In this document: piece after piece, positions 28,194 through 44,991 of the stretch
Numbering within the stretch: position 1 is the stretch's first letter
Layout of the letters: every line of letters begins with the position of its first letter
Virus record (IMG/VR): IMGVR_UViG_3300045015_000053
DNA length: 64,000 bases
DNA from: a virus
Lineage: Duplodnaviria > Caudoviricetes
Direction: 5' to 3' (one strand)
The notes under the pieces: model-generated
What the model was told of the DNA's origin: nothing
Databases searched by the model: none
What the model saw: the letters and a program-made list of their open reading frames with translations, nothing else
Position numbers and translations under genes: made by a program

Positions 28194-30323
28194 ATGAACG
28201 AAGTTCCTACCAGCAACAAGGCCGTGTCTTTGCTGGACCGGGTAGCCGGTAAGTACGACAAGCGGCAGTTCCAGAAGCTCAACGAAGAGATGAGCTTCGG
28301 CGAATATCTGGAGATGGTCCAGAAGAACCCCCGCATCGTGCGTAACGCACACCAGCGTGTCTTCGACATGATCATGTCGAAGGGGTCGTACACCTTCGAG
28401 CGTTACCGCAAGACCCTGACCCACTACAACTTCTTCGATGACCCGGAAATCCCGATCTTCGACCTCGAAGAACCGCTCGATGAACTGGTGAAGTTCATCA
28501 AGGGTGCGGCCGGCGGGTTCGGCACCGAGAAGCGTGTTCTGCTCCTCCACGGCCCGGTAGGGTCGGCCAAGTCCACGATCCTCCGCTTGCTCAAGCGGGG
28601 TCTGGAGAAGTACAGCCGCACCGACGAGGGCGCGTGGTACACCTTCAAGTGGGTCAACCTGCCGACCGGCTCGGACGGGATCTACACCCACACCGAAGAC
28701 GAATGCCCGATGCACGAGGAACCCCTCAAGCTGATGTCGCTTGAGCGGAACCCCGGCGAAACCAAGTCCATGCGCGAAGCGTTCGTGGACGAACTCAACG
28801 TCACGCTGTTGGAGAGCGTGCCGGAAGAGAAACGGACCACACAGTACACGCTGCGGGTCAAGGGCGAACTGAACCCCCGCTGCAAGAAGTTCATGAGCGA
28901 ACTGCTGAAGCGGTACGGCGGCGACTGGAAGCAGGTGGTCGAGAAGCACATCCGCGTGGTCCGCAAGGTTCACAGCGAGGCCGACCGCGTGGGCATCGCG
29001 ACGTTCCAGCCGAAGGACGAGAAGAACCAAGACAGCACGGAACTGACGGGCGACATCAACTTCGCCAAGATCCCGCACTTCGGTTCGGACAGTGATCCTC
29101 GCGCCTTTAACTTCGACGGAGAGTTCTGCGTCGGCAACCGGGGCATTGTCGAGTTCATCGAAATGCTCAAGTTGGAGACGGCGTTCCTCTACGACCTCCT
29201 CGGAGCGTCCCAAGAGCAGAACATCAAGCCCAAGAAGTTCAGTCAGATCGGCGTGGACGAGATCATCATCGGCCACACCAATCAAGCCGATTTCGACAAG
29301 CTCAAGAACAACCAGTTCATGGAAGCCCTCCGCGACCGGACGGTGAAGATCGACGTTCCCTACGTCACCCGCTGGAAGCACGAGATCAAGGTGCTGGAGC
29401 AGGACTACGGTTCCGGCAAGGTGCGTCAGCACGTTGCGCCACACACCCTCGAAATCGCCGCCCTGTGGGGCGTCCTGACGCGGTTGCAGGACGACAAGGA
29501 CGGCAAGATCGACCTGATCCAGAAGGCCGAACTGTACGACGGGAAGCTGCTTCCGGGGTGGACCGAGGACTCGGTCAAAGAACACATCATGAAGCACCCC
29601 GGCGAGGGCATGACGGGCGGCGTGAGCGTGCGGTACATCCAAGACAAGATCTCGAACTGCTTGTCGGCCCGCCACGACTACATCAACTTCTTCATGGTCT
29701 TGAACGAGATCAAGGAAGGGTTGAGCAACCACAGCCTGATCACTCACAAGGACCAGATCAGCCGCTACCTGACGTGCGTGGAACTCTCCATCAAGAAGCT
29801 GGACGAGATCCTGAAGGCCGAGGTGCAACGCGCACTCGTCGGCGACGAGGACGCAATCGTCCGGCTGTGCGCCAACTACATCGACAACGTGATGGCGTAC
29901 ATGTCGAAGGCGAAGGTGAAAAACAAGATCACCGGCCGCGACGAGCCGCCGGACGAGCGTCTGATGCGGAACATCGAGAGCCGCATCAAGATCCCCGATC
30001 AGGGGGCCGACGACTTCCGCCGGACCATCGCCGCGTTCATCGGCGATCTGGCCCACAAGAAGCAAGAGTTCAAGTGGGACAGCAATCCGCTCCTCAAGAA
30101 AGCCCTCGAAGCGAAGCTCTACGAGGACACCAAAGACCACATCAAGCTGTCGGCCCTCAACGTGAGCGGTGCGACCGTGGTGCAGCCCGACCTGCAAGAA
30201 AAGATCGACGCGATCAAGACGCGGTTGATCAAACAGTACGGCTACAACGAGCAGTCGGCCAGTGACGTACTCGACTACGTCGGCTCGATCTTCGCTCGCG
30301 GCGACCTCGCCGAGAAGGACTGA
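28194..30323 (+). CDS. prkA: PrkA/YeaG AAA+ family (annotated serine kinase)
   Basis: AHQRVFDMI, LHGPVGSAKST, PKDEKNQDSTELTGD, GNRGIVEFIEMLK, EALRDR. Confidence 0.93.
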   Translation: MNEVPTSNKAVSLLDRVAGKYDKRQFQKLNEEMSFGEYLEMVQKNPRIVRNAHQRVFDMIMSKGSYTFERYRKTLTHYNFFDDPEIPIFDLEEPLDELVKFIKGAAGGFGTEKRVLLLHGPVGSAKSTILRLLKRGLEKYSRTDEGAWYTFKWVNLPTGSDGIYTHTEDECPMHEEPLKLMSLERNPGETKSMREAFVDELNVTLLESVPEEKRTTQYTLRVKGELNPRCKKFMSELLKRYGGDWKQVVEKHIRVVRKVHSEADRVGIATFQPKDEKNQDSTELTGDINFAKIPHFGSDSDPRAFNFDGEFCVGNRGIVEFIEMLKLETAFLYDLLGASQEQNIKPKKFSQIGVDEIIIGHTNQADFDKLKNNQFMEALRDRTVKIDVPYVTRWKHEIKVLEQDYGSGKVRQHVAPHTLEIAALWGVLTRLQDDKDGKIDLIQKAELYDGKLLPGWTEDSVKEHIMKHPGEGMTGGVSVRYIQDKISNCLSARHDYINFFMVLNEIKEGLSNHSLITHKDQISRYLTCVELSIKKLDEILKAEVQRALVGDEDAIVRLCANYIDNVMAYMSKAKVKNKITGRDEPPDERLMRNIESRIKIPDQGADDFRRTIAAFIGDLAHKKQEFKWDSNPLLKKALEAKLYEDTKDHIKLSALNVSGATVVQPDLQEKIDAIKTRLIKQYGYNEQSASDVLDYVGSIFARGDLAEKD

Positions 30324-30897: not shown

Positions 30898-32124
30898 ATG
30901 CCGAGACGCATCCAAGAAGACCACAAGGACTTTCGTGATGTGGTTTCAGGGCGTATCCGCAAGGCTCTGAAAAAGTTCATCAAGTCCGGTAAGTTCACCC
31001 GCGCTCGCGGTCGCAACGGCAAGATCACGATTTCGATCCCGCAGATCGACATCCCCCACATTGTCTTCGGTGACAACGAAGAGGGGATCGGACGCGGTCG
31101 CGGCAAACCGGGTGACATCATCGACCAAGACCCGCAGCCGGGTCAGGGCGGGGGTGACGGCGACGAGCAAGAGGGGATCATGATCACCCTCGAACTTGAT
31201 GACGTTCTCCGCTTCATGCAGGACGAACTCGAACTGCCTCAACTGCTGCCCAAGCAGAACCAGACGTTCGAGGACGTGGAAATCAAGTACATGAACATCT
31301 CGCTCGTCGGGCCTGAATCGCTGCGGCACACTCGTCGCACGATGTTGCAAGCCCTGAAGCGGATGGCGTCTACGGGCGAGATCAACAAGCTCCACAAGAT
31401 TCCCGGCTCGACAGACTCGGTGAAACTGATCCTGCCGATCAACAGCGACAAACGCTACCGGCAGTTCAGAGAGGTCCGCATCCCGTCGTCCAACGCGGCG
31501 ATCATCTTCGCTCGCGACGGTTCGGGGAGCATGGACATCGAGAAGTGCGAGATCGTCAGCGACATGGCGTGGTGGATCAAGGTCTGGATCAAGCGGTTCT
31601 ACCAGCGGGTCGAACTGGCTTGGGTCTGGCACGACACCGGCGCGAAAGAAGTTGACGAAGACACGTTCTTCCGGCTCCGCAACGGCGGCGGAACCACGGT
31701 TTCGTCCGCGTTTGACCTGATCGCCAAGATGTTCGACAACAGGTTTCCGCCCGACAAGTGGAACATCTATGTGTTCTACTTCACGGACGGCGAGAACTGG
31801 GGCGACGACAACCCGAAACTCATCAAGAAGTTGAAGGAAGAGTTCGGCCCCCGTGTCGCCAACTTCGTCGGCATCACTCAGGTGCTGGCCTACAGCTATC
31901 AGGGCAGCGTCAAGGAAGCGATTGACGACGCCATCGATGACAACGAACTGGACGAGGAACACATCAGGACTGTCAGCATCGGTCCCGAAATGGAACACGA
32001 TGACGACAACCCGATGATGATCTACGACGTTCCGAGTCTCAGCGAAGACGAACGGGACGACCAGATTCTTAACGGCATCCGTCAGCTTTTGGGCAAGAAC
32101 CAAAAACAAGCGACCGACAGCTAA
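30898..32124 (+). CDS. yeaH: YeaH/YhbH (DUF444) VWA-type protein
   Basis: GRGRGKPGD, SDKRYR, MIDAS-like DGSGS...GGGT...TDGEN. Confidence 0.92.
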   Translation: MPRRIQEDHKDFRDVVSGRIRKALKKFIKSGKFTRARGRNGKITISIPQIDIPHIVFGDNEEGIGRGRGKPGDIIDQDPQPGQGGGDGDEQEGIMITLELDDVLRFMQDELELPQLLPKQNQTFEDVEIKYMNISLVGPESLRHTRRTMLQALKRMASTGEINKLHKIPGSTDSVKLILPINSDKRYRQFREVRIPSSNAAIIFARDGSGSMDIEKCEIVSDMAWWIKVWIKRFYQRVELAWVWHDTGAKEVDEDTFFRLRNGGGTTVSSAFDLIAKMFDNRFPPDKWNIYVFYFTDGENWGDDNPKLIKKLKEEFGPRVANFVGITQVLAYSYQGSVKEAIDDAIDDNELDEEHIRTVSIGPEMEHDDDNPMMIYDVPSLSEDERDDQILNGIRQLLGKNQKQATDS

Positions 32125-32148: not shown

Positions 32149-33768
32149 ATGGCTTCTCGATTCATGGCCGGTATGCCACTGCTGATGGGCGACAACACGG
32201 TTCCAGGCGCACCGATGCCGAAGGAACTGAAGGAACTGATTCCGACCATCTTCAAGGTATGCACGGAGTTCGGCCTCGACTACTACCCGACCGTCGTCCA
32301 ACTCCTCACCTACGACGAGGTGAGCGAGATCGCGGCCTACGGCGGGTTCCCCGTCCGCTACCCCCACTGGCAGTGGGGCATGGAGTACGAAGAACTCCAA
32401 CGCGGCTACGAGTACGGGATGCACAAGATCTACGAGATGGTGATCAACAGCAACCCGTGCTACCTGTACTGTCTGCACAGCAACACGCTGGTGGACAACA
32501 TCACGGTGATCGCGCACGCCCTCGGCCACTGCCACTTCTTCAAGAACAACGTGTTCTTCGAGCCGACGCAGAGGTTCGCGCGTGACTACAACATGATCAA
32601 CGAACTCGCGAACCACGGCAACCGGGTTCGCGAGTACATGGGTCGTTGGGGCAAAGAAAAGGTCACCGAGTTCATCGACCACATCCTCCGCATCGACTCG
32701 CTCATCGACCCCGCCTCGGCGTGGGACGAGAAAGAGTCGAAGGACGTGGTCGTTCGCGACACCCGCAAGTACCAGCAACCGCGTCGGCTCAAAGTCGATC
32801 AGGGTCGCCGGCACATGGAAGACTGGATCAACCCGCGTGAGTGGAAGGAACGCGAGAAGAAGCGGATCACCAAGAACGAGGCGTCCGAAGACCTCGGTCT
32901 GTTCGGGGGGCCGCTGAAGGACATCATGGGGTTCCTCCGGGTCAACGCCCCGCTCCGTCCGTGGCAGGCCGACATCTTCAGCATGCTCTACGAGGAAGCC
33001 CTGTACTTCTCTCCGCAGGGCAAGACGAAGATGATCAACGAGGGCTTCGCGTCGTGGGTGGACTTCAACATCATGGCGCGAATGGGGTACATCGGCCTCG
33101 GCCAGAGTCATCACTCGGCCGGCATCATCGAGTACGCCGACCACAAGATGGGCGTACTCGGCGGTCACTACTCGCTCAACCCGTACAAGCTCGGCTTCAG
33201 CATCCTGCTCGACATCGAGGAGCGGTGGGACAAGGGCCAGTTCGGGAAAGAGTGGGACGAGTGTAAAGACCTGAAGAAGAAAGAGGCGTGGGACACGAAG
33301 GCCATGCTCGGCAAGCAGAAGGTGTTCGAGGTCTGCCGCAACTACGACGACCCGACCCTGATCGCCGAGTTCTTCACCGAAGACCTCTGCCGCAAGATGG
33401 AGTTCTTCACATGGAAGCATTACCCGAACGGCGACACGAAGTACGAGAGCAACGACTACCCGGCGATCAAGGCCAAGCTGATGCGGCGGTTCATCAACCG
33501 TGGTCTGCCCGACCTGAAACTGGTCGAGCCGAACTATCGCGGACGCGGGTATCTGCTGCTCGAAGACTTCAGCGAACCGGGCCACACGCTGTACGACCCG
33601 TACCTGCGAGAAGTGCTGACTTCGATCCGCTACCTGTGGAACAACGACGTGGTCGTCGTGACTAAGAACAAGGACGGCGCGGAGATCGTCTACCACTGCC
33701 ACGGGTCCGACGCCGACAAGGGCGTGTCGGTCAAGTCGCGTGAAGCGTACCTGAAGGACGGATACTAA
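32149..33768 (+). CDS. spoVR: SpoVR/YcgB family protein
   Basis: GLDYYP, GFPVRYPHW.WG, KIYEMVINSNP, AHALGHCHFFKNN, YFSPQGKTKMINEGFAS, LNPYKLGF. Confidence 0.93.
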   Translation: MASRFMAGMPLLMGDNTVPGAPMPKELKELIPTIFKVCTEFGLDYYPTVVQLLTYDEVSEIAAYGGFPVRYPHWQWGMEYEELQRGYEYGMHKIYEMVINSNPCYLYCLHSNTLVDNITVIAHALGHCHFFKNNVFFEPTQRFARDYNMINELANHGNRVREYMGRWGKEKVTEFIDHILRIDSLIDPASAWDEKESKDVVVRDTRKYQQPRRLKVDQGRRHMEDWINPREWKEREKKRITKNEASEDLGLFGGPLKDIMGFLRVNAPLRPWQADIFSMLYEEALYFSPQGKTKMINEGFASWVDFNIMARMGYIGLGQSHHSAGIIEYADHKMGVLGGHYSLNPYKLGFSILLDIEERWDKGQFGKEWDECKDLKKKEAWDTKAMLGKQKVFEVCRNYDDPTLIAEFFTEDLCRKMEFFTWKHYPNGDTKYESNDYPAIKAKLMRRFINRGLPDLKLVEPNYRGRGYLLLEDFSEPGHTLYDPYLREVLTSIRYLWNNDVVVVTKNKDGAEIVYHCHGSDADKGVSVKSREAYLKDGY

Positions 33769-34231: not shown

Positions 34232-34924
34232 ATGAAAAAGAAGAAACCCGTTCTACCGCCGTCATACGACATCTTCGACGCCCTGAATCAAGTCCACCGC
34301 GACAGCATCTGTACGGAAACCAGAGAGATCTGGCTGCACAGTACGCACGCGGGCGACGACGAACCGGGCGTCGAATATCGTATGGCGACGATGTTCCTCA
34401 AGAACCTCAACCTTCTTGAGAAGGACGGGAGCCGCCGGCCCATACTCGTTCACATGCACGTTACGGGCGGCGAGTGGAACGACGGGATGGCGATCTACGA
34501 CGCCATCAAGCTCTCCCCCTGTCCGATCACCATCATCGCCTACGCTCAAGCGTCCTCGATGTCGGGAATCATCCTCCAAGCCGCCAAAACCCGGCTGATG
34601 ATGCCCAACTGCGAGTTCATGGCTCACACCGGCAGTCTCGACACCAACAACGAAACCCTTGTCGCTTTCAAGCTCGCGCAGCGGAACATGGAGTGTCACA
34701 AGCTGATGCTCTCGATCTTCGCCGAGCGGTGCATGAAGGTCGAAAAGTACAAGGGTCTGGCTCTCGAAGAGGTCATGGCGAAGATCGACTGGTGGATGAA
34801 GAACGACGGCGAGATCAACATCCTCGCGGCCGAGGCCGTCGAGAACGGGTTCGCCGACGCCGTGATCGGAAGCAAAGAATACCCCACGGTTTATGACGCC
34901 TGGGGACGAATCATGTCCGGCTGA
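34232..34924 (+). CDS. clpP: ClpP-like protease subunit
   Basis: TGG...GMAIYDAIK, AQASSMSG (nucleophile Ser), RLMMPNCEFMAH (His), AAEAVENGFAD. Confidence 0.8.
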   Translation: MKKKKPVLPPSYDIFDALNQVHRDSICTETREIWLHSTHAGDDEPGVEYRMATMFLKNLNLLEKDGSRRPILVHMHVTGGEWNDGMAIYDAIKLSPCPITIIAYAQASSMSGIILQAAKTRLMMPNCEFMAHTGSLDTNNETLVAFKLAQRNMECHKLMLSIFAERCMKVEKYKGLALEEVMAKIDWWMKNDGEINILAAEAVENGFADAVIGSKEYPTVYDAWGRIMSG

Positions 34925-35102: not shown

Positions 35103-35292
35103 CGGGACACAGGTACGCATCACCGGCAACCACACCCTGGTAAAAGGGTCTTTGGTTTTGAACTGCACTGGTCTGACTGGCATAGTTGACCGCTATTGCC
35201 ATTGGTCCGACTGTTTCGTTGTGCTTCTGGACGATCCGCCGCACCACGAACTCTGGCTCGGCGAACTGGAGATCCAAAAGGTATTACCATGA
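35056..35292 (+). CDS. small hypothetical protein (SH3/KOW-like pattern)
   Basis: 78 aa; GTQVRI...GLTGIV...VLLD; the stop overlaps the dnaE-N ATG. Confidence 0.5.
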   Translation: MNQWLKAIWMRSAFPSGTQVRITGNHTLVKGSLVLNCTGLTGIVDRYCHWSDCFVVLLDDPPHHELWLGELEIQKVLP

Positions 35293-36710
35293 GCATCCCT
35301 GTCACCGGCCTGGAACACCTTCACCTGCACACGGATTTCTCGCTTCTCGACGGGTTCGGGATGGTGGAGGAGTACACGGAGCGGTGGAAGAAGCACGGCC
35401 GCTTCCTGTGCATCAGTGACCACGGGATGATGGGAGCCGTACCGCGCCAGATCAAAGCCTGTGAAGCCGTCTGCGAAGAACTCAAAGACAAAAACGCCTT
35501 CTCGCCCATCTTCGCCTGCGAACTTTACGTCAACCGCTACCACACCGAAGCCACGCCCGACGTTGCCAGCCGCGAAAAGCTGCTCGCGGGCATGAACCCT
35601 GATGAAAAGGCCGGTTTCAAAGTCCGTGGCAGTCACCTGCTCGCCATCGCCTACAACGAAGTTGGCTACAGTAACCTCGTCAGAATGACGACGTGGGCGT
35701 ACCTGAACGGTTTCTACGGCAAGCCCCGCGTCAACTACGAACAACTTCTGAAACACAAAGAGGGTCTGATCTTCACGAGTTGCTGCTACAACTCCGAGAT
35801 CGGTCGCGCCTTCGAGTACGGCGGGACCAGTTACGAAGAGAAGCGTGACGCCGCCGCTGTCGTCATCGAGCGGTACATTCAGATGTTCGGTTCGGAATAC
35901 TTCTACCTCGAAATCATGCTCCTCGATTTCGAGAAACAAAAACCCTACGACAAGTTCATCATCTGGGCGGCAGATAAGTACAAGCTCCGTCTGATCGTCA
36001 CCAACGACTGCCACTACTGTCTGCCCGAAGACTCCGAGTACCAGCGTCTGATGTTGATGCAGCAGACCGGAAAGACAATCAAAGACATTCAAAAGGCACT
36101 CAACGAAGAGGGCATAAAAGACCTGTTCGAGCTTCAGGACCAAAACTTGTGGATGAAGACCGAAGAAGAACTGAATGACATGTGGGTGAAGAAGTACAGC
36201 GACACTATCGATCTGGACATCTTCCAGTGCGCCAAAGCGAACACCGTCAAGATCTGCGAGATGTGTAAGGGCGTGAAGCTCGACCGCCGCAACAAACTGC
36301 CCAAGCTCAAGAACGCCGAGGACGAACTCCAAACCCACATCCTGAATGGGTTCAAGGAACGCCACATCGTCGGCAAACACTACAAGGCTCGCGCGGCTCA
36401 GGAATACGAACTGATCTGTCGCAAGGGGTTCGCGTCTTACTTCCTGATTCAGAAGAAGATGGTGGACGAAGCCCGGCGGTACTACCGCGACGTGCTGAAG
36501 CTCGGAAGTGGCTACGAGGCTGTGGGTCCGGGCCGTGGGTCGGCCGTGGGCGCACTCACCTGCTATCTGTTGGGCATCACCGACGTTGACCCGGTGGAAG
36601 AAGATCTGCTGTTCGACCGCTTCTTGAGCGACAGTCGCGGCGGTCGGCAGATCAAACTGCGGTTCTCGAACATCGACCCGATCATCACCAAAAAAGAAGA
36701 AGCCGCTTGA
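35289..36710 (+). CDS. dnaE: DNA polymerase III alpha, N-terminal half (PHP domain to GRGS segment)
   Basis: HLHTDFSLLDG, SDHG, ELY, HLLAIAYNEVGYSNL, TSCC, TNDCHY, GPGRGSA, LLFDRFL; stops before PDID. Confidence 0.93.
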   Translation: MSIPVTGLEHLHLHTDFSLLDGFGMVEEYTERWKKHGRFLCISDHGMMGAVPRQIKACEAVCEELKDKNAFSPIFACELYVNRYHTEATPDVASREKLLAGMNPDEKAGFKVRGSHLLAIAYNEVGYSNLVRMTTWAYLNGFYGKPRVNYEQLLKHKEGLIFTSCCYNSEIGRAFEYGGTSYEEKRDAAAVVIERYIQMFGSEYFYLEIMLLDFEKQKPYDKFIIWAADKYKLRLIVTNDCHYCLPEDSEYQRLMLMQQTGKTIKDIQKALNEEGIKDLFELQDQNLWMKTEEELNDMWVKKYSDTIDLDIFQCAKANTVKICEMCKGVKLDRRNKLPKLKNAEDELQTHILNGFKERHIVGKHYKARAAQEYELICRKGFASYFLIQKKMVDEARRYYRDVLKLGSGYEAVGPGRGSAVGALTCYLLGITDVDPVEEDLLFDRFLSDSRGGRQIKLRFSNIDPIITKKEEAA

Positions 36711-36722
36711 GGCGGCTTCTTC
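36696..36722. terminator. hairpin between convergent genes
   Basis: 11-bp stem GAAGAAGCCGC/GCGGCTTCTTC with the dnaE-N stop in the loop. Confidence 0.7.
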
Positions 36723-36725
36723 GGG

Positions 36726-37964
36726 TCACATGTCGTCGTCTTCTTCCCACGGCATCTTTTCATGCTCGTCGTCTTCGTCGTCCGAGTCGTCGTCGTCTTC
36801 GTCATCGAGGTCGTCATCCCCGCTTTCATTGTCGTCATCTAGACCCAGATCGTCGCTGAAGTCGAGTTTGTGGTCGTCATCCCCGCCTTCATCTCCCATC
36901 CCGCCCTTGCCCGGAGGTGGCGGCGGGCTGTCTTCGTCCCCGCCGGCCATGTCGTCCATCTCCCCGCCGAGGTCCGGCTTCTCGCCGCTGTCTCCGAGGT
37001 CGTCGCCGCCCATGTCACCCTTGCCCGGTGGCGGTGGCGGCATGTCTTCGTCACCGCCTTCGCCCGGACCACCTTCATCATCCAGATCGAGGTTGTCTCC
37101 AACATCGCCGCCGTCTTCGTCCCCTTCGCCGTCGTCGTCTAGATCGAGGTCGTCCTCTTCGTCGCTGACTTTACGTTTCTCTTCTGACGGGTCAACGTCT
37201 TCGATGTCCATGCTGTCGTCGTGGGCCGGCTCGTCAACTTCTTCGCGGATCGCATGTTCGAGACGCCGCTGGAACGCTTCGCCCTTTTTGCTTTCGATGA
37301 TCTTGGCGAGAGCTTTGAAAGCCTCTGGGATCGTCAGCAAGTCGTTCACGAGAGCTTGAACCCCTCCGCTCCGGTTGATTTCGCGGACGAGGGCGTTACG
37401 CAAGTTGGCGTTCTCGTTGGCGAGGTACGCGACGTACCGAATCGCCTGAACCGGGTCCGGGTAGAACGCGCCGGCCGAGTGCGCAACGACGTGCGGTGCC
37501 TTTTTGCTCTTAACGTTCTCGGTCAGCCCCTTCTTGACGTGCTTGGCGAATTCGGCCGTCGTCATGCCTTTGGTGGCTTTGAGGAACGATTCGGTGGTCG
37601 TGGGACCGCCCTTCGGCCAACTTGCCACGGACTTTCCGCCGGACACGCCCTGTGTGGACTTGCTCACTCCGTTTTTGCCACCGTACCAGCCGTCACCCGG
37701 CTCGTACACGAGTCCTTTGTCGCCCATGTGTGCGAAGCCGCCCTTTTCAGCCTTCTTGGGGGCTTTGTCGGTGCCGCTCTTGTACGGCGCGGGCGTACCT
37801 TTGCTGCCGACGTTGGGGACTTCCCAATTCTTGCCTTTGGTCGAGCCTTTCTTGGGGCTTTTCTCTTTTGGGCCTTTGTAGTCTGGGGTCGCTTCGACTG
37901 GCGGTGCGGTGACGACTTTCCCTTTAGAGGAAAGGTACTCTTTGAATGTCTTGAACGATTTCAT
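36726..37964 (-). CDS. putative internal head/core protein: basic N-half, very acidic D/E/G/P C-half
   Basis: GGAGG RBS; MKSFKTFKEYLS; repeats DEDMPPPPPGKG and DEDSPPPPPGKG. Confidence 0.75.
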   Translation of the reverse strand: MKSFKTFKEYLSSKGKVVTAPPVEATPDYKGPKEKSPKKGSTKGKNWEVPNVGSKGTPAPYKSGTDKAPKKAEKGGFAHMGDKGLVYEPGDGWYGGKNGVSKSTQGVSGGKSVASWPKGGPTTTESFLKATKGMTTAEFAKHVKKGLTENVKSKKAPHVVAHSAGAFYPDPVQAIRYVAYLANENANLRNALVREINRSGGVQALVNDLLTIPEAFKALAKIIESKKGEAFQRRLEHAIREEVDEPAHDDSMDIEDVDPSEEKRKVSDEEDDLDLDDDGEGDEDGGDVGDNLDLDDEGGPGEGGDEDMPPPPPGKGDMGGDDLGDSGEKPDLGGEMDDMAGGDEDSPPPPPGKGGMGDEGGDDDHKLDFSDDLGLDDDNESGDDDLDDEDDDDSDDEDDEHEKMPWEEDDDM

Positions 37965-37974
37965 GTTCCTCCGG

Positions 37975-38412
37975 TTATTGCAATGGCCGTGCGGCAGGAC
38001 CACTGCTCTGGCCGATGAGTGTATTTAGGAAGACTTCGACCAACTCGTCCAAAGTTGTTTGATTGGTCTTCAACTCGCTCAGTCTCTTCGCGATGTATGT
38101 GACGATGCTGATGTTGGCCGGCTGAACCGCCGCTTGGAAAATGGCGACCGCGATCTTCGGAACCAGATTCCGTTCTCGCGCGGCTTCGTAAATGGCTTCA
38201 TAGGCGGCGTCAAGGCGGTTCTTGTCCTTCGGCACCTTACTCAGTCTCTTGACGAGTTCTTGTGCCGCCCCCATCGCTTTGCTGCTGGCCGAGGGTGGGG
38301 AATACGGTTTTTCGCCCGTGCCGGACGCAACACGGTCCAGTCTGCGTTCACCGCGACTCGGCACCAGACCGGCGAGGGCTTCGGCCACCCATTCGGTGAA
38401 CTTCGTTTCCAT
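37975..38412 (-). CDS. putative internal head protein
   Basis: GGAG RBS; METKFTEWVAE. Confidence 0.6.
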   Translation of the reverse strand: METKFTEWVAEALAGLVPSRGERRLDRVASGTGEKPYSPPSASSKAMGAAQELVKRLSKVPKDKNRLDAAYEAIYEAARERNLVPKIAVAIFQAAVQPANISIVTYIAKRLSELKTNQTTLDELVEVFLNTLIGQSSGPAARPLQ

Positions 38413-38458
38413 GCTTCTCCGGTAGAAATCTTTGTCTCGAAGGTATATACTTGCAACT

Positions 38459-38695
38459 ATGATTTCTTTCCGCGAGTATCTGGAACGCGACCGGCTCAAG
38501 AAGCACGTTCGCCACCACAACACGACAAAAGCGTTGGAAGACGCTTTTCCGGGTGAAGAACTGGACAAAGCCAAAAACGCGGTCTATACTAACTGGCGTG
38601 GAAGGAATAAGAGAGCCGCGATGAGGAAATTCATCGCGGACAAGGATACGAAGTGGGCGAATCTTTGGGGTAAGATCCGAAACGACGCTGACTGA
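38459..38695 (+). CDS. putative internal head protein
   Basis: MISFREYLER; TATATA 9 nt upstream. Confidence 0.65.
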   Translation: MISFREYLERDRLKKHVRHHNTTKALEDAFPGEELDKAKNAVYTNWRGRNKRAAMRKFIADKDTKWANLWGKIRNDAD

Positions 38696-38701
38696 GTAAA
38701 T

Positions 38702-39079
38702 GGGGATGAAAAGGTTTCGATACGGTACGGAGGTTGTGAGTTGCACGCCGTGGTTGAGCGAAGGGCCACGTTAAAAATCGTTCAAACTCCATCTGGCAAA
38801 ACCAGTGGTCTGCGTCTGGTGGGCGACCGCCCGGCGCTCCGTCTCGCGGCTTGACCGCGACGGGTCCGCGAGGGACTTCAGATAACTCGCGGGTCCGCAA
38901 CACATCTGGATCGGTCATCAGGGTTGCTCCCTGACTGATGGCCGGAACTACCAGGGAAGCTTGCTCGTGACCTTGATGTCGGTAAGAGGTTACGGGGACT
39001 CCAGGCCCGACTAAGCGTGTGAACGAAATTTACAGTTGAAGTAGCGTACACGCGGGTTCGACTCCCGCCATCTCCACTA
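38702..39079 (+). ncRNA. ssrA: tmRNA
   Basis: 5' GGGGATG pairs with 3' CATCTCC-A (G.U at position 3); T-arm CGCGGGTTCGACTCCCGC; tag ORF 38795-38854 (A)GKTSGLRLVGDRPALRLAA*; ends ACTA rather than ACCA. Confidence 0.92.
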
Positions 39080-39109
39080 GAATACCCCGCGATTGCTCGC
39101 GGGGTATTC
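39080..39109 (+). terminator. hairpin directly after the tmRNA
   Basis: GAATACCCCGCGA/TCGCGGGGTATTC stem followed by TTGTTT. Confidence 0.7.
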
Positions 39110-39128
39110 TTGTTTCCAGAGGCAGATC

Positions 39129-39659
39129 ATGTTCGCAATCTTCTCCGGTCAGCACGACGATCATCAACTCGACGGCATATTTTCGACGCAAGAGAAAGCC
39201 GATGCCGCTCTTGTCGAAGTCTCGAAGATCCGCGACCATGCTGTCATTTCTCAAATCGTTGTTGACGAGTTGTGCGGGCGAAAAGCGATCCCTCATTGGC
39301 GTGCAACAGTAAACGTGGCTACTGGTGAGCTTTTGTTCGACAAAGAAGACGGATCGTATCGATTCTACGAGGGTGTGAGTTACAACTGGGAAGATGCTCC
39401 CTACCCCGAACTCGACACTTATGTCAATGTGATTCAGATAATCCCTTACCGTCACAACGGCTACATCCCGAAAAACTTCTCAGTCTTCTCGGCCAAAAGT
39501 CAGGAAGCCGCAAGAGAGTTGGCGCTTGCGGCGTGGGCGGAACTGAATCGGAGGCTCGATTTAAGCAAGATCTACCACGCGACCGGCTCGATCTGGTATC
39601 CGAAGGAATTGACCGAAAAACTGTACGAAGACGGGGTTTGCAAATTCCCTTCGGCTTGA
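39129..39659 (+). CDS. hypothetical protein
   Basis: GAGG RBS, 176 aa. Confidence 0.7.
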   Translation: MFAIFSGQHDDHQLDGIFSTQEKADAALVEVSKIRDHAVISQIVVDELCGRKAIPHWRATVNVATGELLFDKEDGSYRFYEGVSYNWEDAPYPELDTYVNVIQIIPYRHNGYIPKNFSVFSAKSQEAARELALAAWAELNRRLDLSKIYHATGSIWYPKELTEKLYEDGVCKFPSA

Positions 39660-39751
39660 TCGGTCTATATTGTCGTCGTGGTGACTGCTGGCTTGTTCGT
39701 GACCTCCCTTTCTGATAGACTTTCAAAGTCACTCAGTTACGGAGTTTAGCG

Positions 39752-40009
39752 ATGTTTTCCAAAGCCGGTCACTGGATTTCTTACAAGTGGTTCTCGTTCA
39801 TCCTCTGGGCCTTTCCCAGTCGCGCCGAACGGTTCCACGAACGTAAAGGTATGAGAAGGGCAATCGGCGGGCGGTGGGGTCTGTGGGAAGTTGACATGGG
39901 CGGCTGGATGGGGAAGTTTCACATCTGGTTGCGATCCCAATGCGAACACTACCCTTCCCCGCCGTTCGCCACCTCAACTGAACCTCTGGAAACGGAAGAG
40001 TACAAATGA
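39752..40009 (+). CDS. hypothetical Trp-rich protein
   Basis: GGAG RBS; the stop overlaps the next ATG. Confidence 0.55.
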   Translation: MFSKAGHWISYKWFSFILWAFPSRAERFHERKGMRRAIGGRWGLWEVDMGGWMGKFHIWLRSQCEHYPSPPFATSTEPLETEEYK

Positions 40010-40401
40010 AGCGTCTCATCTTGGCCGTCGCCCTGTTCGCTCTCGTCGGCTGCGGCCCGACTCTGTACGAACTGAAACAACGTACCACCTCGGATTTGAA
40101 CGTCATCGCTCAAGAGTGGGACGGGAAGGCGAATCCCCCCGATCTGAAGGGCCGGCTCGATCCGTGGGGCAACCAGTACCAAGCCGCCGTGACAAAGGAA
40201 AAGCTCAACTACAAGTTGAGCGTCCGGTCGCCCGGACCAGATCGTCTGCCGTACAATTCTGATGATCTTGTCGTCACGCGACAAGCCGCTCACGGCGAAA
40301 CCACACAGAATCTCGAAAACGAGGGATTCTTTTACTCCATCTCGAAGGGCATCTTTGGCGGCGCACGCGACGGCGTCACCGGCAAAGAGTCCAAAAAGTG
40401 A
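40006..40401 (+). CDS. lipoprotein with a T2SS pseudopilin G-like motif
   Basis: Lipobox LVGC; DPWGNQY...SPGPD...DDL. Confidence 0.7.
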   Translation: MKRLILAVALFALVGCGPTLYELKQRTTSDLNVIAQEWDGKANPPDLKGRLDPWGNQYQAAVTKEKLNYKLSVRSPGPDRLPYNSDDLVVTRQAAHGETTQNLENEGFFYSISKGIFGGARDGVTGKESKK

Positions 40402-40436
40402 TCAGCCCGAACCTCTAACGACCGGATGAGGACAAT

Positions 40437-40919
40437 ATGTCACTCGTACTTTCCAGCAGCAACCCTCGCGTCCGCGTGAAGACCTACGGCTTCGCCGAGG
40501 AAGTGGTCACGATTACATGTGAGGATCAGTGGAAGCCGCCGTTCCGACAAGTGGACGTGCCGATCAAGAAGTTCCTACAAATGGCGACAAGCTTCTTCCA
40601 GAGCTACGTCAGCGGCCAAGAAGCGCCGGCGTCAATTCGGATGTGTGGGGACCGGGTGCTGATGAATCTGGCCGAAGGGTGTCTGTTCGACGTGGCGGCG
40701 TGTGATTTGTTTCACATGATTCGCTACGTCATGACCAACACCGACGTGCGGCCTAACGACCCAAGACACCAGTTCTTCGAGTCGTGCAAGAGTCTGCCGA
40801 GGCCGAAATCGGAGGCGAACGGCACCGTGGACGTGATGATTCGATTCTTACAGGACGCCAAGATCGTGCCGGGCTTCAATACCCACCTCGGCAATAATTC
40901 AACTCGATACCAAGTCTAG
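40437..40919 (+). CDS. hypothetical protein
   Basis: GAGGA RBS, 160 aa. Confidence 0.65.
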   Translation: MSLVLSSSNPRVRVKTYGFAEEVVTITCEDQWKPPFRQVDVPIKKFLQMATSFFQSYVSGQEAPASIRMCGDRVLMNLAEGCLFDVAACDLFHMIRYVMTNTDVRPNDPRHQFFESCKSLPRPKSEANGTVDVMIRFLQDAKIVPGFNTHLGNNSTRYQV

Positions 40920-40978
40920 GTTGGATTCTTTGTTTATGGTCTGTTATACTTCCTGAGTCACCACTCAGGAGGTATGAC

Positions 40979-42028
40979 ATGAGCGACGACAAAGAACTCA
41001 ACGATATACTCGACGCTTCGCCCTCTCGCCGTCGTCGGCGGGACAGGGCCGACCACGACGAATCTCCCGCCGTCTGCGAAAAAGGGGTCGATCCCGACGC
41101 ATGGTCGCGGAGCAACGTTCAATGGACGAGCGGCGACGACCTCCGCTTCATCCCCGCCGCAAAGACGTGCCGTAAGCTTCCGCCCGGCGCATACGAAATC
41201 AAGTCCAATCCGAACGTCGGCACTTACTTCGAGAAGATCCCCGTCAGCATCGACGGGCTGGTGCGGTTTCCCCAAGCCAACACCGACAAGGTGCTTCTGG
41301 AGATCCAGAAGTTCTGGGAACGCGAAGCACTGTTCCGCGAGTACCGTCAGACCTACAAACGCGGCATCCTGATGTGGGGACCGCCCGGCGGCGGTAAGTC
41401 ATGCTGCATCAAGTTCGTGATGAAGGACGTGATCGAGGAACGCAAGGGCATCGTGATCAAGTTCACGAACCCGCACATGTTCGTTGAGGGCATGCGGATT
41501 CTGCGTGAGATCGAGCCGAACACGCCGGTCGTGGTGCTGCTCGAAGACATCGACTCGACCATCGAGCGGTGGAGCGAGACGGAAGTTCTCAACATCCTCG
41601 ACGGCGTGGACAAGATCGACCGCGTGGTCTTCCTCGCGACCACCAACTACCCCGAACTCCTCGGCGCGAGAATCATCAACCGGCCGAGCCGCTTCGACAA
41701 GCGGTTCAAGATCGACAAGCCGAACCCGGAATCGCGGATGATCTTCCTCAAGCACATCCTGTGCGACGAGGCGCGGGCGGCGAAAGAGAAACTGACCCCC
41801 GAAAAGCGGGAGCAGTTTATCAAGAAGCGTGCCGCCGAACTGGGCATCAATCTCGACAAGTGGGTGCGGGACTCGGACGGCTTCAGCATCTCGCACCTGA
41901 AGGAACTGTTCATCGCCGTCATCATCCTCGGCGACGAGTACGCCGACGCCATCAAGACCCTGAAGTCGATGAAGGATCAGATCAGGCACGGCGACGACGA
42001 CGGCACCACGAAGATGGGCTTCATTTGA
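40979..42028 (+). CDS. AAA+ ATPase
   Basis: GILMWGPPGGGKS, LLEDID, LNILDG, ATTNYPE, RPSRFD. Confidence 0.9.
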   Translation: MSDDKELNDILDASPSRRRRRDRADHDESPAVCEKGVDPDAWSRSNVQWTSGDDLRFIPAAKTCRKLPPGAYEIKSNPNVGTYFEKIPVSIDGLVRFPQANTDKVLLEIQKFWEREALFREYRQTYKRGILMWGPPGGGKSCCIKFVMKDVIEERKGIVIKFTNPHMFVEGMRILREIEPNTPVVVLLEDIDSTIERWSETEVLNILDGVDKIDRVVFLATTNYPELLGARIINRPSRFDKRFKIDKPNPESRMIFLKHILCDEARAAKEKLTPEKREQFIKKRAAELGINLDKWVRDSDGFSISHLKELFIAVIILGDEYADAIKTLKSMKDQIRHGDDDGTTKMGFI

Positions 42029-42037
42029 AGCGGCGGT

Positions 42038-42080
42038 CAATGCAAGAACCCGGCCGCAGAATGGCCGGGTTCTTGCATTG
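42038..42080. terminator. 18-bp perfect inverted repeat overlapping the -35 box of the dnaE-C promoter
   Basis: CAATGCAAGAACCCGGCC-7 nt-GGCCGGGTTCTTGCATTG. Confidence 0.75.
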
Positions 42081-42106
42081 ACAACACAAAGAAACCCATC
42101 GATAAT
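42078..42106 (+). promoter_or_regulatory. sigma70-type promoter for dnaE-C
   Basis: TTGACA-17 nt-GATAAT. Confidence 0.7.
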
Positions 42107-42135
42107 TTGCTGTCCACCAGCCAGCGAGATCAATC

Positions 42136-44991
42136 ATGAAGAACGAGGAAGTTGACACACTTCGCATGATGTGCAAGGACGCCCTCGCCGCACGCAACCT
42201 TCAAAACTGCCCGATTCACACCAAGCGACTGAAGTGGGAGATCGCCGAGATCAAGGCCCAAGACGAGGCCGCGTACTTCATCGACCTTCACGCCCGTGGC
42301 GTGAAGTACCCCAAGAACGAAAACAACCTTCTCGTCGCGTGGCTGCTCGGCATCTGCGACGACTATGAGATCGAGAAAGACCCTGAGTGCAACTACGGGG
42401 AGTTCCCCGACATTGACGTGGACTACCTCAAGGTGGTCCGCGACTACCTGAAGAACGAGTGGGCGTTGAAGGAGTTCGACGGCCAGGGCTTCCATACTTG
42501 CAGCATCGGCAACTACAACACCTTCGGGATCAAGCAGGGCTTCATCGAGTGCGCGGTCACCTACGGGGAAGACCGCCACGAGATCAACGCCATCACCAAG
42601 CAACTCAAACTCAAGGACGACGAGGGCAAGGGGCTGACGTTCGACAAGGCTCTCGAACTGTATCCCGAACTCAAGGCGTATTCCGAGAAGTACCCGCACA
42701 TCGCGCGGGCGGTGAAGAAGATGCTTCACCGAAACAAGAACATGGGGAAGCACGCGGGCGGTCTGATCATCGCCGACAGCCCCATCGACAACCTCGTGCC
42801 GCTCGTCAAGAACGCGAAGGACGGGAGCATCAGTTCGGCGTGGGTGGAGGGTCTGCACGGTCAGGACTTGGGGCCGGTAGGTCTGATCAAGTTCGACATG
42901 CTCGTCATCGCGGACCTTGAACGGATCGCGATGATCAACCGGATCATCAAGAAGCGGCACGGGCTTCAGGGCGTGTGCGCCAAGCCGGAAACGCCGGACT
43001 GGGACTGGAGCGACGGCAGCTACCGCCACGACCCGAAGACCCTCGAACTGGCGAACAAGGCCGACCTTCTGGGCATCTTCCAGTTCGACTCGGACGGGAT
43101 TCGGAAGTTGGTCCGCGAGGGCGGGGTGACCAACTTCCGCGACATCGTCGCGTACAGTGCGATCTACCGGCCCGGCCCGCTCAACATGAAGATGGACAAG
43201 GCGTACACCGAGCGGAAGCACGGCCGGGAGGAGTACACCGTACACCAACTGCTCGAAAAGTACCTCGGCTACACCTACGGTGTCATGTGCTTCCAAGAGC
43301 AGGTAATGCAGATGCTCCACTTCGCGGGCAACATCCCGCTGAAGGATACCTACGCCGTCGTCAAAGCCATCGCCAAGAAGAAGGTCAAGGGTTTCGCCAA
43401 GTACAAAGAAAAGTTCATGAAGAACGCGGCGGTCAATCTCGGCCTGACCGAAGAACAGGTTGTCCACCTGTGGGGTCAGATCGAGAGCTTCGCCGAGTAC
43501 GGTTTCAACCGCTCGCACAGTTGTGCGTACAGCTACATATCGGCGCGTCTGCTGTATCAGAAGGCCAACTACCCGTTGGAGTTCTGGGCCGGCACGCTCG
43601 CGTGCGAAGAAGACACTGACACGCTGAACCTGTACCGCCGTCAGGCTCAACGGGCCGGGGTGTCGCCGAACTACATCGACCTGAACAAGAGCCACCACAC
43701 TTTCAGCATCTGCGACGAAGACAATCAGATCTACATGGGCTTCGGAAACATCAAGGGCGTGGGCGAAGCCGCCGCCCGGAAGATCGTGGAGGTGCGAGAG
43801 GCGGGCGGGCCGTTCAAGGGCATCGAAGATTTCATGCTGCGGTACGGAACCGACGCGAAAGTTCTCCGCGCCCTCATCGGGTTGAGACTGTTCAAGGAAA
43901 GCGACCCAGTGACGCTCGCGAAGTTCGTGGAGAACTACAAGGAGTACATCACCAAGCAGCGGCAGCGGCACCAGCGGTACAAGGACAGCATGGAACGCTA
44001 CGACGCCAAGATCAAAGAACTGGTTCCGACCAATCTCCACCCTTTCATTTACCGGGACGGTTTCCTAGACAGCGTTCAGAAGAAGCTCGACAAGGACTTG
44101 GAGAAGGAAGTCGAGATCGAGGAAGAGTACGAAACTGGCGAGACGCAAGAGATCGAAAAGGTCGTTCGCGTTCCGAAGAATGACAACAGCGAGGCTTACG
44201 AGGCCGGCGAAGACATTCTTGTTTACGAGGCCGGCGAGGGCGATCAGGACTACGAGGACGTTGAAGCGTACACCGAGGTTGTCGAGAAGGTGACCGTTCC
44301 GGTGATGGCCACTCGGATCATCAAGAAGCTGAAGAAGTACAACCCGTATAAGCAATTGAAGAAGGAGTTTCAGTTGCGGGCGCGGACCATGAGCCAGTAC
44401 GTCGAGCGGAACGAAGAAGAGGCGAAGAACACGCCGAGTCTGGCGACGTTCAATTCGTCGTCCGTCACCATCGACCCGAAATACGTCGCCCTGCTCCGCT
44501 CGCGGTTGCAGTCCGAGGTGACGTATCTGGGGTTCGAGTGGCAGACGGAGATGGAACGCAGCCCGGATTTCAACCCAGACACGCCGCACACTTACGACGA
44601 CGCGGAGATTCTGGCTTCGCAGGGGAAGAGTACCGTGATGCTGGACGGCCAGATCATGGAAGTGCAAAGTAAATTGGCGAAGAACAAGCGGACGAAGTAC
44701 CACTCTCTTGTATTGATAGACGCACTCGGTCGGCGCGGGTACATCAACGTATGGTCGGACGACTGGGAGCGGTGCAAGGACATTCTCAAGAAGGGGAACT
44801 TGGTCCGCTTGGTGGTCCGACAGCCCACCAAAGGATTCAGCAGCTACTCGCTGTGGTCCCCTCGCGACCGTCGCAGCGGTCTGGGCGGTGTCGTCCAAGC
44901 CGTCCGTCTGATGAAGGCGGAAGAAGAAACGCTGTCGGAAGACGACTTCGAGAAGAAGATGACCGAATTAACCGGGGAGACAGATGAGTGA
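42136..44991 (+). CDS. dnaE: DNA polymerase III alpha, C-terminal half (palm catalytic Asp, fingers, HhH, OB)
   Basis: FPDIDVDY, GKHAGG, IKFDML, GIFQFDS, RPGP, QEQVM, YGFNRSHS, KANYPLEF, GFGNIKGVG. Confidence 0.93.
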   Translation: MKNEEVDTLRMMCKDALAARNLQNCPIHTKRLKWEIAEIKAQDEAAYFIDLHARGVKYPKNENNLLVAWLLGICDDYEIEKDPECNYGEFPDIDVDYLKVVRDYLKNEWALKEFDGQGFHTCSIGNYNTFGIKQGFIECAVTYGEDRHEINAITKQLKLKDDEGKGLTFDKALELYPELKAYSEKYPHIARAVKKMLHRNKNMGKHAGGLIIADSPIDNLVPLVKNAKDGSISSAWVEGLHGQDLGPVGLIKFDMLVIADLERIAMINRIIKKRHGLQGVCAKPETPDWDWSDGSYRHDPKTLELANKADLLGIFQFDSDGIRKLVREGGVTNFRDIVAYSAIYRPGPLNMKMDKAYTERKHGREEYTVHQLLEKYLGYTYGVMCFQEQVMQMLHFAGNIPLKDTYAVVKAIAKKKVKGFAKYKEKFMKNAAVNLGLTEEQVVHLWGQIESFAEYGFNRSHSCAYSYISARLLYQKANYPLEFWAGTLACEEDTDTLNLYRRQAQRAGVSPNYIDLNKSHHTFSICDEDNQIYMGFGNIKGVGEAAARKIVEVREAGGPFKGIEDFMLRYGTDAKVLRALIGLRLFKESDPVTLAKFVENYKEYITKQRQRHQRYKDSMERYDAKIKELVPTNLHPFIYRDGFLDSVQKKLDKDLEKEVEIEEEYETGETQEIEKVVRVPKNDNSEAYEAGEDILVYEAGEGDQDYEDVEAYTEVVEKVTVPVMATRIIKKLKKYNPYKQLKKEFQLRARTMSQYVERNEEEAKNTPSLATFNSSSVTIDPKYVALLRSRLQSEVTYLGFEWQTEMERSPDFNPDTPHTYDDAEILASQGKSTVMLDGQIMEVQSKLAKNKRTKYHSLVLIDALGRRGYINVWSDDWERCKDILKKGNLVRLVVRQPTKGFSSYSLWSPRDRRSGLGGVVQAVRLMKAEEETLSEDDFEKKMTELTGETDE

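Follow-up and report, generated by a model that had tools for sequence, protein, structure and literature searches.

Two Separate Genes of a Huge-Phage Clade Encode Overlapping Halves of a Full-Size DnaE with a Probably Composite Active Site

Introduction

We analysed a 64,000-nucleotide stretch of DNA of a virus of the Caudoviricetes (Duplodnaviria), IMG/VR record IMGVR_UViG_3300045015_000053; this whole stretch is called the window below. In the window, a DNA polymerase of the DnaE type is encoded by two separate genes on the plus strand. The product of the upstream gene is called DnaE-N (N), and the product of the downstream gene is called DnaE-C (C). The phage comes from lake-water metagenomes, and the same proteins are found on contigs of up to 475,914 bases. 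The window looks like a part of a huge-phage genome. Its gene content includes RecA, a DEAD helicase, ThyX, the PrkA-DUF444-SpoVR triad, a ClpP-like protease, DnaJ and a transfer-messenger RNA (tmRNA). A reading of the nucleotide letters (the original prediction) had described the two genes as an intein-free split DnaE with overlapping halves and had proposed that the active site is assembled in trans. As checks, it had suggested modelling the complex of N and C and surveying the split in other large phages. Both were done here, and this interpretation as a whole is partly supported.

Split polymerases are already known. In the T4-like group 2.2 jumbo phages, a minimal Pol III alpha is split between distant genes, and reconstitution of one enzyme without splicing was predicted for it (Iyer et al. 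2021, Viruses 13:63, PMC7824862). In cyanobacteria, dnaE lies in two distant genes, a case comparable to the 'fractured genes' (Dassa et al. 2009, PMC2677866), and its product is rejoined by a split intein (PMC3919608). In Aeromonas phages 25 and 44RR, the family B polymerase is split into gp43A and gp43B, which according to a review co-purify and are active (Edgell et al. 2010, PMC2988022, citing Petrov et al. 2010).

Results and Discussion

Domain Content of the Two Genes

The two genes and their parts are located in the window as follows.

35289–36710, plus strand: DnaE-N gene, 473 amino acids from ATG, with the PHP domain and the first part of the palm
36315–36638, plus strand: N residues 343–450, functional palm fragment with GPGRGS, R444 and R450
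36525–36542, plus strand: GPGRGS, N residues 413–418, read from the translation
36639–36707, plus strand: N tail, residues 451–473, RGG and then a short alternating hydrophobic strand
42136–44991, plus strand: DnaE-C gene, 951 amino acids, comprising the catalytic Asp residues, the thumb and fingers, HhH and an OB fold
42136–42399, plus strand: C residues 1–88 (C extension), conserved degenerate copy of the N palm fragment
42406–42423, plus strand: PDIDVD, C residues 91–96, with the catalytic Asp pair D92 and D94
42889–42897, plus strand: KFD, C residues 252–254, with the third catalytic Asp, D254

The sizes and coordinates of the open reading frames (ORFs) and the spacing of 5.4 kb in the original prediction turned out to be exact, the gap from the N stop to the C start being 5,425 nucleotides. 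The translations and Pfam also confirmed its division of the motifs, with PHP, GPGRGS and the Arg residues in N and PDIDVD and KFD in C. The Pfam PHP family (PF02811) matched N residues 10–210 with an E-value of 3.2e-31. The Pfam palm model DNA_pol3_alpha (PF07733, 260 positions) was divided cleanly between the two chains, with positions 3–98 matched by N and positions 100–259 by C. PHROG 405 was divided in the same way, its positions 45–439 being covered by N and 441–1054 by C. The split point of cyanobacterial dnaE lies much further along, after the fingers.

Downstream of the palm, C carries the finger domain (PF17657, E 3.3e-38) and HHH_6 (PF14579, E 1.4e-16). OB-fold chains matched residues 810–928 of the C model (Z 9–10, root-mean-square deviation (rmsd) 1.7–3, 72–105 residues). 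The VIA-align program placed residues 88–603 of the C model on residues 399–907 of E. coli Pol III alpha (Z 23.6, rmsd 11.1, 417 aligned), and in the structural alignment PDIDVD falls on E. coli residues 399–404. All the domains of the DnaE type (PHP, palm, fingers, HhH and OB) are present, the palm only when both chains are taken together. The catalytic core is found not on a single polypeptide, as in the DnaE type, but in two ORFs. Between the HhH and OB parts, C residues of about 655–735 (44098–44340) form an acidic, poorly conserved insert, which is modelled as a long beta hairpin with a predicted local distance difference test (pLDDT) score of 50–76.

We compared both halves with the one-chain DnaE of a sister huge-phage clade (LR756511, 1179 amino acids). 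The identity was 43–52%, the domain order was the same, and a gene of the AAA family lies upstream in both cases. N is 52% identical to residues 1–433 of this protein. However, the one-chain DnaE has neither the RGG tail nor the degenerate extension, so that the C extension and the N tail are without a counterpart in it.

The conservation of N was measured on 64 aligned N halves. Residues R416, G417, S418, G421, R444, F445, S447 and R450 are invariant in all 64. In the PHP domain, there is little or no variation at H12, H14, D21, H45, E78, H116, C165/C166, D240 and H242. We take these nine positions to be the metal ligands of active PHP proofreaders. Since all nine are present, the PHP domain of N is probably a 3'-5' exonuclease. 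In the N tail, G451 and G452 are invariant, and F459 at the end of the strand is nearly so; the RGG tail was found in every N half whose sequence was inspected. In C, residues P91, D92, D94 and D96 of the first Asp motif and K252, F253 and D254 of the second do not vary among the 71 C halves compared.

Degenerate Palm Copy at the Start of DnaE-C

According to the original prediction, the start of C re-runs the end of N in a degenerate form, without GRGS and the Arg residues of the FxRF motif. Both parts of this claim held. When a profile of 118 C extensions was compared with a profile of 99 N palm fragments by hhalign, the probability was 93.6% and the E-value 2.1e-7 over 71 columns. The C extension corresponds to N residues of about 345–430. 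Just ahead of the position of the GS motif it has a deletion of about 17 residues, and the place of the motif is occupied by an Asn-rich stretch (NENN). GRGS and the dNTP-binding (deoxynucleoside triphosphate-binding) Arg residues are absent from the extension, as is the helix that bears these Arg residues.

The same correspondence was seen with other models and in related proteins. Residues 342–436 of the one-chain DnaE of LR756511 were matched by both C 20–88 and N 360–450. The NCBIfam model NF005377 aligns with C starting at residue 8. In the C half of a related genome, G002, the PF07733 alignment covers profile positions 21–259. The extension of the related locus L076, which is less degenerate, matched PF07733 with an E-value of 6e-4, below the curated cut-off, and phrog_405 with an E-value of 5.9e-7, in both cases at the right profile positions. 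Among the PHROGs, the extension of the window matched phrog_405 only, at the expected profile positions but with an E-value of 0.14. At the level of profiles, the homology of the overlap is clear.

The extension is not a sequence in decay. All 71 C halves compared share its residues R31, E35, E38, F48, N61 and N64. The mean pairwise identity is 51.7% in the core of the extension (residues 26–75), 68.8% in the palm and 40.4% in the OB fold. In the model of C alone, the extension has a pLDDT of 83–96. When the whole C model was compared with solved structures by Foldseek and VIA-align, the aligned ranges started at residues 88–100 in nearly all Pol III rows; these ranges give nothing positive on the fold of C residues 1–87. 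Since the alignments of C alone to E. coli Pol III alpha start at residue 88, the extension is not aligned to the normal site in this model.

Predicted Complex of the Two Chains

In the model of N alone, the pLDDT is below 50 at residues 416–418 (the GS loop) and 450–473 (the tail). In the model of C alone, it is below 50 at residues 87–98, 121–130 and 198–253, that is, in the Asp strand and the neighbouring palm strands. The single-chain models agree with a mutual dependence of the two halves.

We modelled the complex of whole N with residues 1–500 of C in three runs, along with three controls. The interaction prediction score from aligned errors (ipSAE) was 0.84, 0.85 and 0.84 for the pair, and 0.00 for the best of the three controls. 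The mark for this score is reached by 116 of 157 solved complexes and by 2 of 215 mismatched pairs; these counts are only rough here, since our own alignments were used. The runs share at least 94% of the contacts, and the pLDDT of the partner is at least 88. The pairs with the lowest error are C96–98 with N411–413, C101–105 with N391–398, and C460–467 with N414, N420 and N433. In the model, these pairs correspond to the ordinary geometry of palm and fingers, with the GS strand of N beside the Asp strand of C. The predicted interface also includes C 34–65 and N 443–465 and 467. An active site assembled in trans, as the original prediction had it, is the reading best supported by these predicted contacts.

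We consider it likely that N and C form an obligate two-subunit polymerase of the DnaE type with a composite active site. In such an enzyme, the PHP domain would come from N, together with the strand-GS-helix unit and the Arg residues binding the incoming dNTP. C would supply the three catalytic Asp residues, the thumb, the fingers, HhH and the OB fold. The chains would remain unspliced and would associate non-covalently, the GS strand of N pairing with the Asp strand of C and completing the palm sheet. Neither half alone would polymerise. Each half would also retain a conserved remnant of the share of the other, namely the extension in C and the RGG tail with its strand in N. The duplicated modules had been proposed to serve as an interface or by a domain swap. 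The model places both in the predicted interface and nothing more specific, and the extension and the tail probably act there as an extra clasp.

Distribution among Related Phages

Searches of sequence collections returned hundreds of N halves (about 445–490 amino acids) and C halves (about 830–950 amino acids) on contigs of up to 670 kb. When clustered at 90% identity, each half is represented by over 100 protein clusters, in which the frames are intact and the catalytic residues invariant. The C extension and the N tail are shared by over 100 clusters. The same N and C proteins as in the window recur on 5–6 contigs. By a rule based on the distance between motifs, the extension is present in 118 of the 120 top C hits. 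The other two also have it when inspected by eye, one with a shorter N terminus and one with an extra N-terminal part.

Related loci were retrieved from IMG/VR with an alignment as the query, which gave 62 closer loci (39–70% identity) and 18 more distant ones (27–31%). A single C protein used as the query found no relative among the viral contigs, whereas the alignment query did find them. Not one of the 62 closer loci encodes a one-chain DnaE. In 44 of them, the fetched flank contains N, on the same strand and upstream, at distances that range between roughly 0.35 kb in L041 and over 9 kb. The other 18 show no N in the fetched stretch. Five of these 18 were searched as whole records, and all five hold one N, 10.7–20.7 kb upstream on the same strand. 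In the genome G002, for which CheckV gives a completeness of 100%, PF07733 matches exactly two ORFs, N and C. No family B polymerase (PF00136) was found in G002 or in another relative, G001. Judged by these sequences, the split overlapping DnaE is a conserved architecture of a large clade of huge phages and not a peculiarity of one genome.

The more distant loci are more varied. Eleven of the 18 are one-chain, and one was not assigned to any layout. L064, L075 and L076 have the overlapping architecture, with the RGG tail and with Asn in place of the GS motif. In L080, there is a clean split between PHP and palm, and GPGRGS is intact in the C half. L065 carries an intein-like sequence between GRG and S, and L069 has a break of about 1 kb between FER and FLNP, which resembles an intron or an insertion. 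As L080, L065, L069 and the L064 group show, breaks in this region of phage dnaE are frequent. Among these interrupted genes, the overlapping type is one distinct and conserved solution.

Two further observations concern the relatives. G001 and G002 each encode a short family A polymerase-like ORF of 423–439 amino acids (G001:C1:46483-47145 and G002:C1:286869-287525), which matches the last two thirds of PF00476 only. Ordinary inteins (PF14890, with LAGLIDADG or Hint families) are inserted at internal sites in many halves of the clade, among them the C halves P0011, P0033, P0093, P0097 and P0117 and the N halves P0210 and P0265-P0349. The split gene is thus a frequent host of inteins as well.

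Alternative Explanations

Several points weigh against a two-subunit enzyme assembled in this way. Structures of one-chain Pol III alpha have been solved, and a pass is therefore expected for two halves of that fold; the result of the complex prediction may reflect the solved Pol III alpha, and it shows likeness and not binding. The assembly in trans is a prediction, which places the extension and the tail somewhere in the interface. The low pLDDT of the single-chain models may be a limit of the modelling. Only the analogy with the relatives rules out a second, one-chain dnaE elsewhere in the genome. Finally, the BLASTP comparison of N with C was not significant (E 1.0, a short helix match only), and the extension of the window, scanned alone, matched no Pfam family at an E-value of up to 10. 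For the window itself, the homology of the overlap comes from profiles and from less diverged relatives.

It is also conceivable that C is self-sufficient, with Asn replacing GS at the palm site, and that N is a PHP proofreading or pyrophosphatase subunit docked on it, like epsilon on E. coli alpha. The palm fragment of N would then be a mere docking handle. The confident fold of the extension in C alone and its strong conservation fit this scheme, and so does the position of the invariant N61 and N64 exactly at the place of the GS loop; L080, with its PHP/palm split, provides a case in which the C half carries GPGRGS. However, a mere handle would have no need of GPGRGS, R444 and R450, which are invariant in 64 of 64 N halves, and the extension has lost not only GS and the Arg residues but also the helix that bears them. 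Moreover, the complex model sets the strand of N, and not the extension, beside the Asp strand, and most rows of the alignment to E. coli Pol III alpha leave out the part of the model before residue 88. A self-sufficient C therefore seems unlikely to us.

Much less probable still is the joining of the halves into an ordinary one-chain DnaE by protein trans-splicing, RNA trans-splicing or translational bypass. The interruption of dnaE near the same site in L065 and L069 would suit such a process, as would the inteins (PF14890) that some N and C halves of the clade carry elsewhere. But no intein family was found in N or C (Pfam, E up to 0.01), which bears out the original prediction that there is no intein at either end; the N tail (23 residues) lacks Cys, and C begins with a palm homologue and not with the C part of an intein. 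No intron family was found in the window, where the tmRNA alone passed the Rfam gathering threshold, although divergent elements could escape. The length of the spacer ranges between 0.35 and 21 kb, a gene on the opposite strand, the tmRNA and a terminator-promoter unit lie within it, and the joined product would carry the palm fragment twice. The idea that the two ORFs are decaying remnants or an artefact of assembly, and that another polymerase replicates the genome, is the least credible of all. It could appeal to the short family A polymerase-like ORF of the relatives and to the fact that the search reached only the window of this genome. Against it stand the more than 100 clusters of each half with their intact frames and invariant catalytic residues on contigs of up to 670 kb, the recurrence of the same proteins on 5–6 contigs, and the relative rated as complete, which has no other C-family or B-family polymerase. 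The comparison of sequencing contigs with the window revealed no joints. The N stop is spanned, with 0 differences, by contigs from two runs not marked as the source, whereas among the pieces listed a single run, possibly the source itself, spans the C start.

Comparison with Known Split Polymerases

As in the phages of Iyer et al., the phage C-family module is cut here between the NTP-binding and the Mg/DNA-binding subdomains (PMC7824862). However, the version described in the available text of that paper consists of the nucleotidyltransferase core and a template-binding domain only, without PHP or further Pol III domains, and accompanies a family B polymerase, whereas the version of the window is full-size (PHP, fingers, HhH and OB) and PF00136 is absent from the relatives G001 and G002. 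The halves of the window overlap by a degenerate duplicate, and the same available text mentions no overlap (PMC7824862). Cyanobacterial split DnaE is spliced by intein halves (PMC3919608), in contrast to the window, where the junction has no intein domain or motif. The polymerase of the window resembles gp43A/gp43B in being a phage replicative polymerase made of two polypeptides without an intein (PMC2988022). Yet gp43A/gp43B belong to another polymerase family, and their split is tied to a homing endonuclease or a short untranslated spacer, as far as that source reports (PMC2988022), while in the window the spacer is variable, consists mostly of conserved genes and separates overlapping halves. 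The literature searched, which included few subscription journals and consisted of articles apart from their supplements, held no description of a full-size, intein-free, overlapping split phage DnaE.

If the two-chain enzyme is real, a replicative polymerase of the C family can function although a cut separates the dNTP-binding half of its nucleotidyltransferase fold from the metal-binding half, and a large and abundant clade of huge phages has long kept a divided polymerase. It would be a natural system for the study of how the Pol III alpha palm is assembled, of the separate setting of exonuclease and polymerase stoichiometry, and of the fixation of a split gene by duplication and complementary degeneration and not by a mobile element. 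The clasp pieces, that is, the C extension and the N tail, could become orthogonal split-protein tags. Since annotation pipelines label both halves 'DNA polymerase III subunit alpha', the architecture goes unnoticed. In marker-gene and phylogenetic work on huge phages, both ORFs should be counted as one enzyme.

Origin of the Overlap

We suggest a tentative scheme for the origin of the halves, which we ourselves regard as somewhat doubtful. The halves would be overlapping partial duplicates of an ancestral dnaE, one running from PHP through the Asp strand and the other from the start of the palm through the end. Complementary losses would have followed: the N copy kept the GS/Arg unit and lost the Asp residues, and the C copy kept the Asp strand and lost the GS/Arg unit. 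In the N tail, the pattern hydrophobic-x-hydrophobic-x-Phe mirrors the one found at the catalytic Asp strand. Such losses would amount to a reciprocal swap in which the N module and the C strand make the catalytic palm, the C extension and the N tail make a pseudo-palm, and both zip the subunits together. The overlap begins at the same boundary as the C half of L080. This boundary, together with the AAA gene upstream of both the split C and the one-chain DnaE, suggests that partial duplication fits better than insertion.

As a part of this scheme, the LR756511 clade would have regained its one-chain DnaE by a secondary re-fusion. The idea draws on the deeper group of L064, L075 and L076, which already has the RGG tail and the Asn-rich replacement of the GS loop. 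We built trees of the C core (72 rows) and of the N part (52 rows), in which LR756511 and 12 further one-chain clusters were used. These are quick LG+G4 trees with long branches flagged, from which intein-bearing and truncated rows were left out; the N tree also lacks the one-chain loci L066, L068, L070 and L081, which were missed by the motif rule. Each tree shows two changes of state. In both, the main split clade lies next to or inside the one-chain clade (about 13 clusters), and the L064 group lies further out. For the C core, the approximately unbiased test rejected a single split clade (p 0.012). It is possible that the split had two origins, or one origin followed by a re-fusion.

Spacer and Neighbouring Genes

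The spacer between the two genes contains the following features.

36696–36722, minus strand: terminator-like hairpin across the N stop codon, with an 11-bp stem and a minus-strand T run
36726–38003, minus strand: conserved ORF of 425 amino acids
38702–39079, plus strand: tmRNA gene (Rfam RF00023, 113.1 bits, E 2e-43, full model 1–374)
40979–42028, plus strand: AAA ATPase of 349 amino acids, directly upstream of DnaE-C (Pfam AAA, E 2.5e-11)
42042–42076, plus strand: perfect 14-bp hairpin, just ahead of the sigma-70-like promoter match
42078–42106, plus strand: TTGACA-17-GATAAT, an 11/12 match to the consensus, 30 nucleotides before the C start

The terminator-like hairpin separates the convergent DnaE-N gene and minus-strand ORF. 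This ORF has no match in Pfam, PHROGs or NCBIfam. By tblastn, it has matches in 29 related loci, with 66% identity in L002, and it lies between the halves in most loci where both are seen. The tmRNA is found by Rfam, though ARAGORN reported neither a tRNA nor a tmRNA. The spacer also holds small ORFs that are not conserved. Among the 12 ORFs scanned with Pfam, no endonuclease was found and the sole match was the AAA ATPase; divergent elements could escape such a scan. The spacer appears to consist of conserved genes and a tmRNA and not of a mobile element.

The AAA ATPase is present in 30 related loci, mostly at most 2.5 kb upstream of C. Its nearest solved chains are of the YjoB, VCP and CDC48 types. 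We considered it as a clamp loader or a polymerase accessory and rejected this, because its matches are classic-clade proteins of the CDC48, FtsH and YjoB types and not clamp loaders; no link to the polymerase is claimed.

The original prediction had given DnaE-C a promoter of its own. The 11/12 sigma-70-like match is indeed present, but it is a match to the consensus only, and promoter-like sites number 5 in this region, compared with 3.1 +/- 1.4 in shuffled sequences. The further suggestion that separate promoters tune the ratio of PHP to polymerase is pure speculation based on this one match.

Upstream of DnaE-N, the triad known from the gene content of the window is found in a phage context on the plus strand: PrkA at 28194–30323, DUF444/YeaH at 30898–32124 and SpoVR at 32149–33768. 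In LR756511, an ORF of 537 amino acids (L001:1213-2826) lies at the matching position upstream of the one-chain DnaE. In the window, the gene of the ClpP-like protease (34232–34924, plus strand) lies 3' of the PrkA-DUF444-SpoVR triad.

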